Of a stretch of 36,391 bases of DNA, positions 1,568 to 27,939 are shown piece by piece. Source of the DNA: a virus (Duplodnaviria > Caudoviricetes); the IMG/VR virus record IMGVR_UViG_3300037434_000013, positions 1 through 36,391 of that record, one strand, 5' to 3'. The translations under genes were made by a program, and so were the position numbers. The notes below the pieces were generated by a model that was given only the letters and a program-made list of their open reading frames with translations, searched no databases and had not been told where the DNA came from. How positions within the stretch are numbered: the stretch's first letter is position 1; each line of letters opens with the position of its first letter.

Positions 1568-1578
1568 TGTGGTATAAT
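1568..1578 (+). promoter_or_regulatory. Consensus extended -10 promoter TGTGGTATAAT driving the tRNA-like/Pth2 cassette
   Basis: Perfect TRTGnTATAAT ending 9 nt before the tRNA-like RNA. Confidence 0.75.
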
Positions 1579-1587
1579 CAAATCTAC

Positions 1588-1669
1588 GGCGGGTTAGCTC
1601 AGTGAAAGAGCACCTATCGGGAGCAATCTTGATAGGAGGTCGGAGGTTCAATTCCATCTCCTGCCACCA
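1588..1669 (+). ncRNA. Anticodon-less tRNA-like RNA with encoded CCA
   Basis: Acceptor GGCGGGT/TCCTGCC+A+CCA, D arm GCTC/GAGC, T loop TTCAATT. The anticodon arm is replaced by CCTATCGGGA-GCAA-TCTTGATAGG (10 bp plus a GNRA loop). Confidence 0.8.
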
Positions 1670-1686
1670 ACTTTAAGAAAGGTTAT

Positions 1687-1713
1687 ATGTCATAGATTAC
1701 TGGTCCTCCCTAA
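1687..1713 (+). promoter_or_regulatory. Putative leader minigene M-S-(TAG)-I-T-G-P-P-TAA
   Basis: ATG TCA TAG ATT ACT GGT CCT CCC TAA preceded by SD-like AGAAAGGT (1676-1683). Function is inferred. Confidence 0.5.
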
Positions 1714-1767
1714 ATCCTATTAAGCTTCGCATAGACTTCAATACTATCAACTTATAAAGGATTTAAA

Positions 1768-2337
1768 ATGAAAACACAAATATCAAAACTCAAGCAAGAC
1801 CTCAAGGGTATTGCAAAAACAATCAGACAACAAAAGAAACTTAGAAAGCCATCTCATCCGCACCACGATAAGTATATCGGTGCCTGGAGTGTAGAGTTAC
1901 TTTCTATACAATATAGACACAAGCATGTCGCTTATTGCCTTGCACGAGGTCGCACTCTAGAGCAATGTGATAGCGGCAATGGCCTTGACATGGACTACGT
2001 CAATTGGCTCCTAGAGGTGATGAACCCGGAGTCTAAAGAGAAACTCTATGTCGTTGTGAATCAAAAGCTAACGGCATCGCAGCAAGCAGTTCAATCTGCT
2101 CATGCAGTAGCTGAGTTCATGAAGAAGAACCCTCACACCCTGTGGACAAATGGTTACCTTATATTACTAAAGGATAATCCATCTTCTCGCGGAGATATGT
2201 CTTACTACGGTGTATGCAACAACTATCAGCATCAGCGAGCAGAATTCATAGAGCCGGATCTTGGTAACAAGATAACCGCATATGCGTTCTTTGGGCCGAA
2301 TGCTACTCAGCAACTCAAGGATAAGTCTCTTCTTTAA
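1768..2337 (+). CDS. Two-domain protein: basic N-terminal domain plus C-terminal PTH2-like peptidyl-tRNA hydrolase domain
   Basis: SD AAAGGA. KLYVVVNQKLTASQQAVQSAHAVAEF resembles the Pth2 first strand/helix (KxVxVVRxDL...AQxAHA); later EFIEPDLGNKITAYA. Confidence 0.7.
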   Translation: MKTQISKLKQDLKGIAKTIRQQKKLRKPSHPHHDKYIGAWSVELLSIQYRHKHVAYCLARGRTLEQCDSGNGLDMDYVNWLLEVMNPESKEKLYVVVNQKLTASQQAVQSAHAVAEFMKKNPHTLWTNGYLILLKDNPSSRGDMSYYGVCNNYQHQRAEFIEPDLGNKITAYAFFGPNATQQLKDKSLL

Positions 2338-2349
2338 TTAGTATAAATA

Positions 2350-2423
2350 GATTGTAGTGCCAACGCGTGACGTGCGCTGGGTAAATGCCGTCCCTACGGG
2401 AAAATAAACTCGGCTACATCAAT
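2350..2423 (+). ncRNA. Candidate small structured RNA
   Basis: GC-rich island in an AT-rich spacer with closing stem TGTAGT/GCTACA, hairpin 2360-2380 and TCCC-TAC-GGGA, downstream of TATAAA (2342-2347). Confidence 0.35.
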
Positions 2424-2426
2424 TTT

Positions 2427-2561
2427 ATGACTGAACGAACTGTATACTTAACTATAATCCTCGGAATGCTCTTAACCATGTGCTATTATTTCTCTTGGGA
2501 AACTCAGCACTATGAATATATTGAGAGTAAGTTCGACATAACATTTTCCCACTGTAAATGA
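2427..2561 (+). CDS. Small putative membrane protein (44 aa)
   Basis: Read by hand: MTERTVYLTIILGMLLTMCYYFSWETQHYEYIESKFDITFSHCK, one hydrophobic segment, no clear SD. Confidence 0.45.
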   Translation: MTERTVYLTIILGMLLTMCYYFSWETQHYEYIESKFDITFSHCK

Positions 2562-2636
2562 TCTCTTAGCTCAATTGGTTAGAGCGGACCCCTCTAAAAG
2601 GTACGGTTATCGGTTCGAGCCCGATAGAGATCACCA
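2560..2636 (+). tRNA. Amber-suppressor tRNA (anticodon CTA)
   Basis: Perfect 7-bp acceptor GATCTCT/AGAGATC, A73 and CCA; D arm GCTC-AATTGGTTA-GAGC; loop CT-CTA-AA (anticodon 2594-2596); T arm ATCGG-TTCGAGC-CCGAT. The anticodon stem has two mismatches. Confidence 0.85.
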
Positions 2637-2747: not shown

Positions 2748-3488
2748 CTAATCAACCCAGTATTTGGCGTAAGGGTTTGTATTCTTCGGCTGATAGTATA
2801 TGGATGCAACGTCCTTCATCCCATTTGGATAATCTTTTAGAAGACGATTCATAAAGATCTTGTAACCCAACTTATTCAATAAACTAACCTTACTAACGTT
2901 ATTTCCTAAGTGCCATGCTAGTCGTCTAGCATCTGTGTTACCTATGTCTGTACCGATACAGCTTAATGCTAGGATGATAGCGCTGTATAGGAAGAATGGT
3001 AAGAAAGCTAATCTAATCAAGTAGTGTAGAGGATCTTCTAGACTTGGGAAAGCTGCTGCAGCCATAGCTGCAATAATCTGAGGCTGTCTGGCCATGAAGG
3101 AGTTAGCAGTCCAGGTTCCAGGAGAGTTATTGTTCATGCAACCAAAATATCTGAAGATAGCTCCGAGCATCTTCCTCGGTAACGCGGTATTTCCCATCTC
3201 AGCCATGCCGTTAGTAGCCCCGTAGAAATCGTCTGGTTCTTCTTGATCAGTATCGTTTGGAGCTCTGTTAAGTAATCCATTAGAGTCTACACAAGAACCC
3301 ATTCTAGTATCAAAATCCGTTTGATCTTGAGGGGTTAGGTTGCCAGTCTTCTTGAGCATTATGAAGTACTCGCTGGTATACATCGGTCCATTATCTGATC
3401 CCTTACCAACCGGTGGTTGCGGTTGTGGGTTAGGGGTCATCAGTTTATTTCCGTCTACATATGTCGCGAAGTCATCTTTGATACTCAT
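2748..3488 (-). CDS. Hypothetical protein (the only convincing minus-strand gene)
   Basis: 246-aa ORF with its own TGaTAGTAT promoter 6 nt upstream; ends in TAG. Confidence 0.85.
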   Translation of the reverse strand: MSIKDDFATYVDGNKLMTPNPQPQPPVGKGSDNGPMYTSEYFIMLKKTGNLTPQDQTDFDTRMGSCVDSNGLLNRAPNDTDQEEPDDFYGATNGMAEMGNTALPRKMLGAIFRYFGCMNNNSPGTWTANSFMARQPQIIAAMAAAAFPSLEDPLHYLIRLAFLPFFLYSAIILALSCIGTDIGNTDARRLAWHLGNNVSKVSLLNKLGYKIFMNRLLKDYPNGMKDVASIYYQPKNTNPYAKYWVD

Positions 3489-3503: not shown

Positions 3504-3563
3504 CAAGGTTTATGGGAGCCCACCTACAACATCCTAAGATTTAAAGCGCCTTATAGGGCTATC

Positions 3564-3602
3564 TTCGTTTGCGAAGCAAACGAACACGCGCGCTTGCGCG
3601 CG
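3564..3602. repeat. Two adjacent perfect inverted repeats in the divergent intergenic region
   Basis: TTCGTTTGC-GAA-GCAAACGAA (3564-3584) and CGCGCGC-TT-GCGCGCG (3587-3602). Confidence 0.85.
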
Positions 3603-3763
3603 AGACTAACTAAAGCGCAACTAAGGTTTCTAAAAGATAGATTGACTAACAAAACCCTTCTCTATGATACCCACGAAGCGTATGTTTTTCACGCGGCTTG
3701 AAAAATAATTATTAACCACTATGTACGTATGTCTATCTGTATAAATCCATCACGGAGAGATTT

Positions 3764-4282: not shown

Positions 4283-4716
4283 GTAATGTAGATATAATGC
4301 TAGAACTTAAACTAGTATTAACAGAAATCTTTGGACCTTGTCTTAGAGATTTTCACATAGAACAATTTGGAGGCGTACAGTCCGTACCTTCTATGGGTGG
4401 TCCAATCATGACACAGATGTCACAACCCACTACTAGACTTCATCTTAGATTAGCATTATCAGAATCATACATGATGAGAATGAATCCACAAGGTTCACTG
4501 GAAAATTGGTTAGACCTTGGTCCTAACGCCTTCTGTACAAATCGCTCTCAAAGCTTTTCTAGTAAGACTATGCTTCTTCACGAAATAGAAGTCTCTTATG
4601 CCCTTGTTGGAACAATAGAAGAATTTATAGATTTTAATAAAAACAAGGCTTGGAAACGCTTTAATGCGTTGATAGATGAACAGTTAAGTGAGGTGCTAGA
4701 TGTGGACGATAGGTGA
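4279..4716 (+). CDS. Hypothetical protein
   Basis: 145-aa ORF with an ATGA overlap on dut. Confidence 0.75.
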   Translation: MSNVDIMLELKLVLTEIFGPCLRDFHIEQFGGVQSVPSMGGPIMTQMSQPTTRLHLRLALSESYMMRMNPQGSLENWLDLGPNAFCTNRSQSFSSKTMLLHEIEVSYALVGTIEEFIDFNKNKAWKRFNALIDEQLSEVLDVDDR

Positions 4717-24784: not shown

Positions 24785-25391
24785 CGAAGAGAAGTACGGG
24801 CTAAGTGAAGAAGAGATTAAACTAGCTGAAAAGTACTTAAGAAAGCATAAGACAGCCGGGGCTCTTAAAGAGCTAGAAGCTGCAAAGTTATTTGAACTGT
24901 ACCTACTAGGTGAGTCAATCCCAAAGATAGCCCAACAGTTCCCCCAATACAATTTAGGTCAAGTTGCCCTTACGGCCTCCCTACGAGGATGGGCCCATGA
25001 TCGCGACAAGATGATGCACACCCTGCAAGATCGGGTTCGTGCTAAAGTCGTTAAATCAGTCTTAGAACAAGTCGATTTCCTAACTGCCATGATGTCTGTA
25101 GCAAATGCAGAGCACTTAGAGAAGATGATGAAATACTGTCAAGATCCAATTAATAATCCAAAGCCTGACATGCGTGTGACCAATATTAAAGAATATAAGG
25201 ATGTTGCAGAGACTTTATATAAGATTGTCTCCGGTGCTACTCCTGGCTCTGGCAAGAATAAAGAGCGTTCACCAATGTTTGAAGCCTTGACCCCTCCAAC
25301 TCCCAAGAAGGAAGTTGAAGTGCAAGAAGATGATGCAAGTACTTTACTTAGTCATGCGGTAGGAAATAATGAGCAAGAAGACCAGCACTAA
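24759..25391 (+). CDS. HTH protein, candidate terminase small subunit
   Basis: LYLLGESIPKIAQQF HTH-like segment; directly upstream of and overlapping terL. Confidence 0.5.
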   Translation: MALKKRLTDEEKYGLSEEEIKLAEKYLRKHKTAGALKELEAAKLFELYLLGESIPKIAQQFPQYNLGQVALTASLRGWAHDRDKMMHTLQDRVRAKVVKSVLEQVDFLTAMMSVANAEHLEKMMKYCQDPINNPKPDMRVTNIKEYKDVAETLYKIVSGATPGSGKNKERSPMFEALTPPTPKKEVEVQEDDASTLLSHAVGNNEQEDQH

Positions 25392-27309
25392 GCTTACCTT
25401 CGAGCAACAGAAGAAAATGCTGCTTACTCCTTGTAAAACAAGGAACGAAGTTAAAACTTGGATTAAATATCACCTTGGACTTGAGTTACCGGACGTTACT
25501 GTCTCTAGGTACTCGGACACTAATCCCTTAGACGTTATCTGGGAAGTGTATCGTATCTGTGTTCTAGGTATCAACCCAGACAATATTCAGGAATTGCTTT
25601 TCGTCGCCGGTCGAGGATCGGGTAAGACTCTCGGTATGGCTATCGCAGAACTCATGATTCTTTTTCATGATAAGCGAGATGTGGTTCACGTTGGAGCTAT
25701 TCAGACTCAAGCTGAGCGATGCTATGCATATCAAAAAGGCTATCTATATAATCGCAAGCTAAAACCTATTGTGATGCCGCCGGATCTTCCCGAAGATCAA
25801 AGAATTGTTGAAAAAGCAAACATGTCGAAGTCTATCTTCAACATTGGACATGACAAAGTTACTCTAGAGGTTCTTCCTTGTACGCTAAAAGCTTGTAACG
25901 GTCCTCACGTTCCGCTAGTTGTAGTTGATGAGATCGATACTGTATCTGGTGAAGGTTTGAAAGCCTTCCGAGAGATTTCCGGTATGTTAGACTCAAGAGC
26001 TGGCAAGAAGGCTCTACGCGTAGGTATTTCTACACGTAAGTCTCGCTACGGCTTAATGAATCAGAAGCTTGAAGAGATCGAAGGCAATCCAGATAAGACC
26101 CGCGTTGCGCGACGTTGGACTGCATTTGAGTTTACAGAGCGTTGTCCTGATAGTCGTTCTGGTACTCAGAAGATGGACTTATTTGTCAACCAAGACAAGA
26201 TGGAAGTCTTGAACCAAGAAGAGTTTGATAAGAAGGATAGAAACAAGCAAAAAGAGTATCTTCCTTACCAAGGATACACTGGTTGCTATAAGTGCCCGCT
26301 ATTCTCCGTATGCTTGACAGATGCTAAGAAGCAGAACTCTACTTCTAACATGTTAAAGAGTTTGGATGAGATGATTCAAAAAGTTAGATCCGAGGGCGCC
26401 GATTGGGCCCTTGCTCAGCTCATGAACTTAAAACCTTCAGTTGAAGGTATCGTGTTTCGAGAGTTCGATGAGAAGATTCACATTCGTACTTGGAATGAGA
26501 TGTGGATGACTCTAGTAGGTAAAGAGTATCCAGGTGAATGTACTCACGATATGTTCGTCAAGAAGTGCCACGAGATGAGAGTTCCATGCTATGCTGGAAT
26601 CGACTGGGGTTTCTCTTCTCCAAATACTGTAGTGTTCTTTTTCGTAGATTCAAGAGATAATATCTATGTAGTCAAGTGTGACGGTATGACTTATGTTAGC
26701 TCTCCTACTTGGATTCACCATATTAAGACTAAGTACCATAACATGTATCGATGTCAACTTTATGTTCCTGATGCTGCCGATCAAGGTGCGATCATGGAGA
26801 TGCAGAAGGCTGGTCTACCGGTCGCCAATCAAGCGGATAAGGGTGCCATCAACACAGGTATACAAGTTATCAAAAAGTTTTTAAAGATGCCGGGTACGAT
26901 CGACGCAAAACTATTCTTAGCAAAAGACCATTGCGTACCTCTTGTGAGAGAGTTCAATCTATATCACTTTAAGACAGATGCTGCAGGATTGGTTACAGAT
27001 GACCCAGATACCGAACACGATCACTGGATTGATGCATTGCGTTATCCGATGACCCTACTGTTTGGTGCCTCTCAGATCATCCTTGGAAGCGGTTTGACGG
27101 ATCAAGCTACTAATCTTACGGACAATAACGGTAACTTTAACAGGATGCCGACTCCGACTGAGTATGCGCTCGCTCAGGGTATTCAGATGGCCCCGCAAGA
27201 AGTAGATAGGTCTAAACTTGGAAAGATAGGGAAACCCTCCGAGTTAGAGGACCAAAATGATGACGATGACTCTAATAGTGGAGCCGGAGGTTTTATCTGG
27301 TCAGTTTAA
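25369..27309 (+). CDS. terL: Terminase large subunit
   Basis: Walker A AGRGSGKT, Walker B VVVDE, nuclease GIDWG and DHWIDALRY. Confidence 0.92.
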   Translation: MSKKTSTKLTFEQQKKMLLTPCKTRNEVKTWIKYHLGLELPDVTVSRYSDTNPLDVIWEVYRICVLGINPDNIQELLFVAGRGSGKTLGMAIAELMILFHDKRDVVHVGAIQTQAERCYAYQKGYLYNRKLKPIVMPPDLPEDQRIVEKANMSKSIFNIGHDKVTLEVLPCTLKACNGPHVPLVVVDEIDTVSGEGLKAFREISGMLDSRAGKKALRVGISTRKSRYGLMNQKLEEIEGNPDKTRVARRWTAFEFTERCPDSRSGTQKMDLFVNQDKMEVLNQEEFDKKDRNKQKEYLPYQGYTGCYKCPLFSVCLTDAKKQNSTSNMLKSLDEMIQKVRSEGADWALAQLMNLKPSVEGIVFREFDEKIHIRTWNEMWMTLVGKEYPGECTHDMFVKKCHEMRVPCYAGIDWGFSSPNTVVFFFVDSRDNIYVVKCDGMTYVSSPTWIHHIKTKYHNMYRCQLYVPDAADQGAIMEMQKAGLPVANQADKGAINTGIQVIKKFLKMPGTIDAKLFLAKDHCVPLVREFNLYHFKTDAAGLVTDDPDTEHDHWIDALRYPMTLLFGASQIILGSGLTDQATNLTDNNGNFNRMPTPTEYALAQGIQMAPQEVDRSKLGKIGKPSELEDQNDDDDSNSGAGGFIWSV

Positions 27310-27333
27310 GTGTTTATATGGTACATTTATAAG

Positions 27334-27939
27334 ATGAAACGTTGCGGTGGTTGTTTAAAAGATCAACAATTAAGTGAATACCATAAAAATAATAGGACTT
27401 TAGACAGCCTTAATACGTCTTGCAAAACATGTGTAGCCAAAACTTCTGCAAAATATAGAGCGAAAAATAAGTCTAAAATAGCTGATGTAAAAAAGAAATG
27501 GTACGAAGCTAACAAGGATCAGGCTTTGAACTATGCTAGTGAATACTATAAGAATAACAAGAGTGTTGTCATTAAGAAGGTTGTTGAATATAGAAGAAAT
27601 AGACTAAAGGTTGACCCTATATTCAAATTGCAAAAGAACATGCGTCATAGGCTTAGTAATTTATTAAAACAGCAATCTTCAAGGGTTGCTATCAATTTCT
27701 TGGGTTGTACATTAGATGAATTTAAGATCTATATTGAGTCTAAATTTTATAACTATATGACTTGGGACAGCTATGGACAATGGGAAATAGATCATGTTAA
27801 GCCATTGGCTTCTTTCGATCTCAGTGATCCTAATCAGTTGAAGGCGGCTTGTCATTATAGCAATCTTCAGCCACTATGGAAGCAAGATCATGTTACTAAG
27901 ACAACTAACGATGTAAGGCAATCGAAGGGTACAATATAA
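27334..27939 (+). CDS. HNH homing endonuclease between terL and portal
   Basis: GCTLDEFKIYIE...MTWDSY...WEIDHVKPL...HYSNLQPLW; paralogous to 19944..20477. ATG 27334 lies 6 nt after TGgTACATT. Confidence 0.88.
   Translation: MKRCGGCLKDQQLSEYHKNNRTLDSLNTSCKTCVAKTSAKYRAKNKSKIADVKKKWYEANKDQALNYASEYYKNNKSVVIKKVVEYRRNRLKVDPIFKLQKNMRHRLSNLLKQQSSRVAINFLGCTLDEFKIYIESKFYNYMTWDSYGQWEIDHVKPLASFDLSDPNQLKAACHYSNLQPLWKQDHVTKTTNDVRQSKGTI

Follow-up and report, generated by a model that had tools for sequence, protein, structure and literature searches.

An amber-gated leader ahead of a Pth2-like phage gene: a candidate translational switch read by a suppressor tRNA

In a large tailed phage, a gene for a Pth2-like protein is very probably controlled by a translational switch in which readthrough of an amber codon in a short leader, by a suppressor tRNA encoded downstream, opens expression. 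The locus lies at positions 1568 to 2636 of IMG/VR virus record IMGVR_UViG_3300037434_000013 (Duplodnaviria; Caudoviricetes), whose whole stretch of 36,391 nucleotides (nt) is called here the window. Its core consists of three linked parts: a leader open reading frame (ORF) interrupted by TAG, a gene encoding a helical domain joined to a Pth2 fold, and a tRNA(CUA). An earlier reading of the same DNA (the original prediction) had described six parts, namely a CCA-ending tRNA mimic without anticodon, a minigene with an in-frame UAG which ends in GPP-stop, a Pth2-like gene, a structured element, a small membrane ORF and a tRNA(CUA), and had proposed that they sense or alter termination. The mimic, the minigene, the Pth2-like gene (with a Pth2 fold in its C-terminal half) and the suppressor are all present (Table 1), and it is plausible that the module senses termination. 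The original prediction had overlooked a hairpin which begins at the Pro-Pro (PP)-stop of the leader and occludes the Shine-Dalgarno (SD) sequence of the gene at 1768.

Leader, hairpin and suppressor tRNA

Related loci (140) were gathered through the protein, by a search via the Pth2-like gene, and gated genes of other kinds would thus be missed; bacterial genomes yielded only 4 loci. Clustering of the helical domain at 90% identity gave 92 clusters, 87 of them with enough upstream DNA. A leader of the pattern ATG..TAG..(PP or RSP) was found in 70 of the 87 clusters, as compared with 0 of 203 control gene starts from the same loci, and the pattern occurred in 75 of 17,400 shuffles. With clustering at 70% identity, the leader was retained in 47 of 64. 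In addition, 69 of 77 clusters have a tRNA(CUA) within -400 to +1,800 of the gene, so that the co-occurrence of elements among homologous loci, on the lack of which the original prediction was to fall, is borne out. TAA and TGA take the place of TAG in one of the 87 clusters each. Among the 17 misses, inspection by eye revealed in 12 a TAG..PP/RSP-like frame that starts with GTG or TTG, is extended at its front, has a variant arrest motif or uses the TAG of an upstream gene, and in L076 a TAA.

The leaders are mostly 8 codons long, and many are longer than that of the window or contain two ambers. The distance from TAG to the end of PP is 5 codons in 50 of the 70, a stop directly follows PP in 53, the Pro codons vary synonymously, and the nucleotide 3' of TAG is a purine in 69. 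RGPP occurs in 12 leaders, RAPP in 2 and RDPP in 2, and KPP is dominant in the close clade. According to PMC12992588, RGPP, RAPP, RDPP and RSPP are arrest-permissive, and we infer that ribosomes would arrest at the leader PP or RxPP. The PP, its spacing and the downstream hairpin would fit a translational attenuator of the next gene. A second leader, M-S-amber-S-R-P-P, was observed at 4331 of locus L149, from a phage of 735 kb, where two tRNA(CUA) genes follow it.

Folding places the SD-occluding hairpin inside the footprint of a ribosome stalled on the leader of the Pth2-like gene. With a footprint of 13 nt, the median predicted cost to open the initiation region across 80 loci falls from 9.2 kcal/mol with the ribosome at TAG to 2.5 kcal/mol with the ribosome at PP; in the window, it falls from 7.7 kcal/mol (TAG) to 1.3 kcal/mol (PP-stop), and the switch holds with footprints of 9-15 nt. 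The drop exceeds 2 kcal/mol in 69 of the 80 loci, and the shuffled-arm controls are beaten in 75. When arms were swapped between loci, the cognate median was -12.0 vs -5.3 for swapped arms, with 78 of 80 loci pairing better than their row median and 0 of 20,000 permutations reaching this level, kinship of the loci being ignored. Per-sequence folding and arm swaps were used because the 5' arm slips in register; RNAalifold found no pairs on the leader alignment, and a structure placed by hand on alignment A4 was 33.9% paired, below shuffles.

The suppressor is the tRNA most regularly linked to the gene. In a wider set, a tRNA(CUA) lies near 85 of 117 Pth2-like loci, the runner-up anticodon reaching 8, and the first tRNA downstream of the gene is tRNA(CUA) in 74 of 87. 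The anticodon loop is CUCUAAA in 70 of 90 parsed suppressors. Their bodies are heterogeneous, with varying acceptor pairs and discriminators (A73 in 41, U73 in 31 and G73 in 15 of the 90); the lack of an identity set common to them suggests that it does not matter which residue is inserted. Tandem tRNA(CUA) pairs are found in L010, L021, L093, L096, L149, L220 and XacN1.

All five loci with a neighboring tRNA(UUA) have TAA in the leader: L076, L146 (Lak-B4), L147 (Lak-A1), L244 and L256. These loci keep the hairpin switch, opening costs falling from 8.2-13.5 to 0.4-4.8. The gate changed from TAG to TAA three times on a quickly built tree of 99 columns with many open forks, at least two of these changes being forced by strong branches. 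This codon/anticodon covariation is the strongest evidence that tRNA and stop act together, and it agrees with the earlier proposal that the suppressor can decode the UAG of the minigene. No opal gate with a matching tRNA was seen among the loci. The automatic table gave a TAG gate in 90 of 99 CUA loci; as it mis-called four of the five ochre loci and several amber loci, gates were re-read by eye, and four of the nine CUA loci without an automatic gate proved to have TAG frames, as does L025. One ARAGORN hit for a UUA tRNA, in L251, falls within coding sequence and was set aside. Of two tRNA-loop patterns, the loose one gave no useful information; the tighter one, judged by eye, revealed further CUA tRNA-like matches elsewhere in XacN1, Xoo-sp13, RAS14, Lak-B4 and LR756511.

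The gate codon is a rare stop in the window phage, where 46 forward genes end with TAA (27), TGA (17) or TAG (2). Similarly, TAA is rare in L244 (1 of 12) and L256 (2 of 15).

Other gate designs were found in relatives. In 24 homologs without a minigene, cultured phages included, a TAG lies within the first 7 codons instead. Twenty-one of these are stand-alone Pth2-like genes with TAG at most 7 codons past an upstream in-frame ATG, not counting a further 3 TAG rows and 8 with TAA/TGA that fall where split loci overlap. Acinetobacter phage ME3 has such an early-TAG stand-alone gene, and in mycobacteriophage IkeLoa the gene starts M-TAG, with a tRNA(CUA) 250 nt downstream. HD-like fusions start M-K-(K)-TAG in XacN1, Xoo-sp13 and RAS14; in XacN1 ORF364, the in-frame SD-M-K-TAG start lies 10 codons upstream of the annotated one. 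Among 94 loci, TAG stands inside the Pth2-like domain in 15, at five distinct positions, and in 4 it links one domain to the other. A scan for SD-ATG-NNN-TAG in five cultured phages gave 27 matches, of which only the known HD-Pth2-like starts lead into long open frames. In L121, L136 and L180, which form a small branch, neither an amber gate nor a nearby suppressor was found.

Two side observations concern these relatives. An HD-like domain is fused to, or lies beside, the Pth2-like domain in L141 (1961-2800, XacN1 ORF364), L142, L143 and L145, and the true starts of these genes, which contain TAG, likely lie upstream of the annotation. In IkeLoa (L144, 2096-2130), an SD-M-F-amber-V-T-R frame stands before hypothetical gene 150 upstream of the gated Pth gene.

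Table 1. Features of the locus, in window coordinates
Feature	Position	Strand	Basis or remark
Extended -10 promoter-like box, TGnTATAAT	1570..1578	+	Sequence; no -35 match
tRNA mimic with encoded CCA, without anticodon	1588..1669	+	Rfam tRNA 38.2 bits; fold z -3.8
Leader Shine-Dalgarno AAGAAAGG	1675..1682	+	Sequence
Leader peptide M-S-TAG-I-T-G-P-P-TAA	1687..1713 (TAG 1693-1695)	+	Sequence, conservation
Hairpin	1711..1765	+	5' arm TAAATCCT (1711-1718) pairs with SD region AGGATTTA (1758-1765)
189-aa protein: basic helical domain (about 1-88) and Pth2-fold domain (89-189)	1768..2337	+	AlphaFold2, fold search
Second -10-like box, TATAAA	2342..2347	+	After protein gene
RNA, non-conserved, accessory	2350..2423	+	Slot carrying other structured RNAs in relatives
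44-aa hydrophobic ORF, single-transmembrane-like, accessory	2427..2561	+	Homologues in some relatives
Amber suppressor tRNA(CUA), canonical type	2560..2636	+	ARAGORN; Rfam 56.7 bits

The gated protein and a proposed circuit

The AlphaFold2 model of the gated protein has a predicted local distance difference test score of 95.8 and a predicted template modeling score of 0.88. Residues 88-189 superpose on P. horikoshii Pth2 (1wn2) with Z 11.2 and a root-mean-square deviation of 2.5 over 100 residues, and the top Foldseek matches are all Pth2. The protein matches phrog_3668 (E 4.8e-8). It has no Pfam match and does not reach the gathering score of PF01981 (23), which its XacN1 and IkeLoa homologs pass with 25.3 and 30.3; among 49 relatives, 33 have a PTH2 match with E no greater than 0.05. 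The family shares the motif Q-x-x-H-A with Pth2, has the invariant residues Q, H, W, N, F, E and D, and shows the consensus F-x-E-P-D.

The helical domain is fused to the Pth2-like domain in the window's clade and encoded by a separate overlapping gene elsewhere. It is basic, has an invariant R and H, and is represented by 1,703 sequences at E up to 0.001. It gave no convincing match to a PHROG family, PDB sequence or Atlas feature, and by structure it matched nothing more specific than generic helical hairpins (best Z 6.5); single-sequence searches of the PDB and of phages with P0001 returned nothing useful. The protein appears to be a Pth2-like binder of tRNA esters with altered catalytic motifs, and it likely recycles peptidyl-tRNA when release factors fall short.

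Based on these data, a mechanism in four steps is proposed. A ribosome would start at 1687 and normally terminate at the UAG at 1693, the hairpin staying shut over the SD. Where tRNA(CUA) outcompetes the release factor, the ribosome would continue and dwell at G-P-P-stop, covering the anti-SD arm, and the freed SD would then allow the helical and Pth2-fold protein to be made. In the last step, this protein would hydrolyze the tRNA esters which arise from failed termination or readthrough, in a compensatory loop like RF2 autoregulation. The first step draws on sequence and folding geometry, the second on conservation and known PP/RxPP arrest, and the third on prediction; the fourth, reached by reasoning, is the least certain. 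As a model, the readthrough-triggered switch of steps 1-3, by which termination at UAG shuts the gene and suppression opens it, is very probable. The whole chain, compensatory hydrolase included, is put forward tentatively, its chances being slightly short of even.

In RF2 autoregulation, prfB carries an early in-frame UGA which is bypassed by a +1 frameshift. The present module is alike in that an early in-frame stop ties expression to failed termination (M-x-TAG starts, internal TAGs), and unlike in that the bypass relies on a cognate suppressor and that the product has a Pth2 fold and is no class I release factor. The compensatory hydrolase is proposed from this analogy and from the non-stop complexes and peptidyl-tRNA to which suppression and failed termination give rise; PMC8012679 reports that nonsense suppression yields non-stop complexes and that Pth clears dropped-off peptidyl-tRNA. 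The quantity sensed would be the ratio of charged suppressor to release activity. It would not be RF1 alone, because versions with TAA exist and UAA is read by both RF1 and RF2.

Several observations weigh against this mechanism. Concerning the leader, L105 has a TAG without PP, nothing was found by eye in L043, L074 and L077, and these four loci, close or distant, are without a TAG..PP leader; the motif of the window, TGPP, is without the Arg of known arrest peptides. Concerning the hairpin, the predicted change is below 2 kcal/mol in 11 of the 80 loci, footprints of 17-19 nt weaken the switch of the window (5.3 or 3.2 vs 1.4-1.5), the arm-swap statistics take no account of kinship, and alignment-based covariation was not detected on a plain alignment. 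The tRNA(CUA) of the window has two anticodon-stem mismatches, G27-A43 and C31-A39, and TAA is the main stop in Lak phages, contrary to a rule by which the gate codon would be the rarest stop. As for the protein, the alignment shows S-Q-Q in the family where solved Pth2 structures have G-K. For the second motif, which lay outside that alignment, the family has E-P-D in the place of the canonical D-A-G-x-T. The catalytic residues of Pth2 are presumably K18, D86 and T90, for which a literature search gave no source. With these motifs altered, hydrolase activity is uncertain. More generally, the proposed switch and activity are read from sequence and folding.

Alternative readings and known systems

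In its most far-reaching form, the module would be a termination-surveillance circuit, the suppressor serving as a programmable release-factor probe that is retuned from UAG to UAA as code or base composition changes, and the effector replacing or protecting release factors against an undescribed host defense which blocks termination. We regard this as rather unlikely. The module would be categorically new if the effector proved to be a termination factor or a counter-defense.

The remaining readings mostly keep the switch and differ in the role of the protein. It may be a suppressor-specific brake, which deacylates or binds aminoacyl-tRNA(CUA) and acts as a homeostat of the suppression level. 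The gate logic suits such negative feedback, as do the close linkage to the suppressor, the conserved suppressor anticodon loop, the altered Pth2 active site with its invariant Q, H, W, N, E and D, and the basic helical partner with its invariant R and H. However, suppressor acceptor stems and discriminators vary widely, the loop becomes UUA in five loci, and the 36 kb gave no further amber-gated target that would explain why suppression is kept. A brake of this kind is unlikely.

Alternatively, the protein would inhibit a release factor or boost suppression, and the resulting positive feedback would amount to a bistable late switch, to sabotage of the host or to a first step of recoding. Recoding has been proposed as late-gene control in bioRxiv 10.1101/2021.08.26.457843, toxicity of suppressors to hosts has been proposed in PMC12386605, the module is present in recoded Lak phages, and the catalytic motifs are altered. 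This reading fits poorly with the 36-kb window, where no TAG was found in frame in terminase, portal, lysozyme or polymerase and where a search for a second SD-ATG-short-TAG-long-frame start, that is another gated ORF, gave none; moreover, the gate in Lak is TAA, and amplified readthrough would harm the phage's own genes. We consider it quite unlikely.

The switch could also serve as an inducible counter-defense, a host toxin that disables termination or modifies tRNA 3' ends being sensed, the Pth2-like domain (and, in some phages, the HD domain) performing repair and the tRNA mimic acting as decoy. This is very unlikely, since a general tRNA toxin would disable the suppressor too and shut the gate. 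The literature search found no anti-phage system aimed at release factors, and in the majority of distant loci no mimic was found; its covariance model also matches ordinary tRNAs. On the other side stand HD-like domains, fused or neighboring, in XacN1, RAS14 and ME3 (weak matches, E 0.011-0.016), the acceptor, D and T arms kept by the mimic together with its predicted weak EF-Tu binding, and the reported action of phage tRNAs against defenses.

It is highly improbable that the switch reads suppressor dose only, as an infection timer or a sensor of multiplicity or co-infection with a protein whose role is unrelated to termination. The -10 box belonging to the suppressor and its tandem copies in several loci would suit a timer, and co-infection sensing is suggested in bioRxiv 10.1101/2021.08.26.457843, but the gated gene encodes a tRNA-ester-hydrolase fold across four gate designs, in loci which were collected via that gene.

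Finally, the bar-type reading, already raised in the original prediction and in which peptidyl-tRNA produced from an M-S-stop minigene would tie up a host tRNA, with Pth2 as antidote, is hardly credible: without readthrough the ORF is indeed a two-codon minigene with a strong SD (M-S-TAG, 1687-1695), alike to lambda bar minigenes in being a very short ORF with SD and stop, and bar toxicity needs Pth (PMC8012679), but a minigene aimed at one tRNA is disfavored because the pre-TAG residue varies over nine amino acids in 42 leaders (L 9, S 7, T 7, K 7, N 3, R 3, M 2, H 2, W 2) with no fixed second codon, leaders are often longer or contain two ambers, the post-amber PP with its spacing and the hairpin form a conserved readthrough extension, and 24 homologs lack any minigene.

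The readthrough-triggered switch is reminiscent of several known systems. SecM, ErmCL and MifM are arrest-peptide attenuators. The resemblance lies in the short upstream ORF which ends in Pro-Pro or RxPP and in the SD of the next gene within a hairpin; the difference is that here the arrest site lies behind an in-frame stop decoded by a dedicated tRNA. The module would be arrest-peptide attenuation with a new input, nonsense suppression. As for RAPP/RGPP peptides, either motif is found in 14 of the 70 leaders, the window having TGPP and KPP being the commonest; in the main text of PMC12992588, the terms 'stop codon', 'phage' and 'readthrough' occur 0 times. The gated protein shares with Pth2 (PF01981; 1wn2, 2zv3, 1xty, 1q7s), and with phage genes annotated 'peptidyl tRNA hydrolase', the fold and Q-x-x-H-A, and differs by S-Q-Q in place of G-K, the E-P-D motif, the extra helical domain and translational gating.

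As in stop-recoded phages (bioRxiv 10.1101/2021.08.26.457843, which describes Lak phages as TAG-recoded), a phage suppressor tRNA permits in-frame stops; unlike them, the window phage uses the standard code with one regulatory stop, and recoded Lak phages gate with TAA and a separate tRNA(UUA). 'Non-functioning' suppressors, as in XacN1 and Zeta crAss-like phages, likewise occur in genomes without visible recoding, with the difference that a candidate target is now identified (XacN1 ORF364). The XacN1 study (PMC5852040) tested readthrough at annotated amber stops and reported no targets; none were reported either by the Zeta crAss-like study (PMC12386605), which asks what purpose 'non-functioning' suppressors serve. 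Why standard-code phages retain suppressor tRNAs without visible targets is thus a question raised by both papers, and the module provides an answer that can be tested.

The original prediction knew of no described system with this composition, and none was found in full-text literature, with subscription journals largely uncovered and bioRxiv recoding supplements excluded. Our reading implies mis-called starts of annotated phage 'peptidyl tRNA hydrolase' genes, those of mycobacteriophage cluster C1 included. It also points to an uncharacterized effector family and possibly to an unknown conflict over termination, and the module is a compact natural reporter of amber/ochre suppression.

Accessory parts and genome setting

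The six parts do not form one fixed cassette: of 27 loci in the close clade, 20 contain the mimic and 8 the membrane ORF, and the structured element lacks conservation. The promoter, described as consensus and single, was upheld in part. An extended -10 box is present and precedes the mimic or the leader in most close relatives, without a -35 match and without being among the calls of a sigma-70 scan. The suppressor and downstream RNAs are probably transcribed separately from their own promoter, because a TATAAA box follows the protein gene, and TATAA[AT] is also found at most 25 nt past the stop of that gene in 17 of 25 close loci.

The mimic keeps a full acceptor stem of varying sequence, the D arm, the T arm and CCA. 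Where a canonical tRNA has an anticodon stem of 5 bp and a 7-nt loop, the mimic has a stem of 10 bp capped by a GCAA tetraloop. In the 20 close loci, where it lies between promoter and leader, the anticodon-arm region measures 12-37 nt. The mimic is found almost only in the phage's own clade; its covariance model also matches ordinary tRNAs, so that no counts are given for distant loci. Scored by Table 2 of PMC3239215, the T-stem reaches at least +1.5 kcal/mol, a value that predicts weak binding to EF-Tu, in 16 of the 18 mimics that could be scored and in 0 of 83 CUA tRNAs; that source describes such energies as non-additive for related stems. The mimic of the window, with its A51-A63 mismatch, was left unscored. 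The mimic is likely a non-decoding decoy or a processing element, and it is dispensable for the module. In a distant locus (L113, 542-624), an 83-nt tRNA-like element scores 66 bits on the mimic model.

The sequence described as a structured element (2340-2425) is there, and its plus-strand fold is no better than shuffles (z 0.26); it matched solely identical copies of this locus. This RNA and the membrane ORF are accessories. The membrane ORF is likewise present, with its conserved start at 2427 and not at 2385; several of its homologues are truncated, and it has no Pfam match. In the search for a T-box, tmRNA, Y RNA or other Rfam RNA, only RF00005 reached the gathering score, and ARAGORN found no tmRNA.

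In relatives, the slot before tRNA(CUA) carries conserved structured RNAs of 150-170 nt, closed by a GTGCGG/CCGCAC-like stem and bearing a GGATAGACG loop. RNAs with this stem occur just past the Pth2-like stop in L009, L090, L091, L093, L094, L095 and L097, and other types are seen in L022/L103, L099/L100, L101 and L102. The slot RNAs match no Rfam family and are candidate new noncoding RNA families.

ARAGORN labels the suppressor as tRNA-Pyl. The hallmarks of tRNA-Pyl are one base between acceptor and D arm, a 3-nt variable loop and a 6-bp anticodon stem; the label was rejected, as 2560-2636 has the canonical U8-A9 and a 5-nt variable loop.

The 36,391-base contig of this large tailed phage encodes terminase, portal, Pol III alpha, RecA, chaperonin and lysozyme, and contigs of relatives reach about 180 kb. 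The phage uses the standard code: an amber-recoded (code 15) genome was rejected, no long gene in the 36 kb examined requiring TAG as sense. In the terminase region (25369-27939), the TAA of the terminase ORF is directly in frame with an endonuclease VII-like ORF, which is itself in frame with the portal gene. A 246-aa ORF on the minus strand (2748-3488) converges on the module; it has no Pfam or PHROG match, and similar DNA is found in L004. Further on, two neighboring GC-rich hairpins (3540-3610), terminator-like on the minus strand, lie between divergent genes, and similar hairpin pairs are located 3' of the suppressor in L092 and L102.

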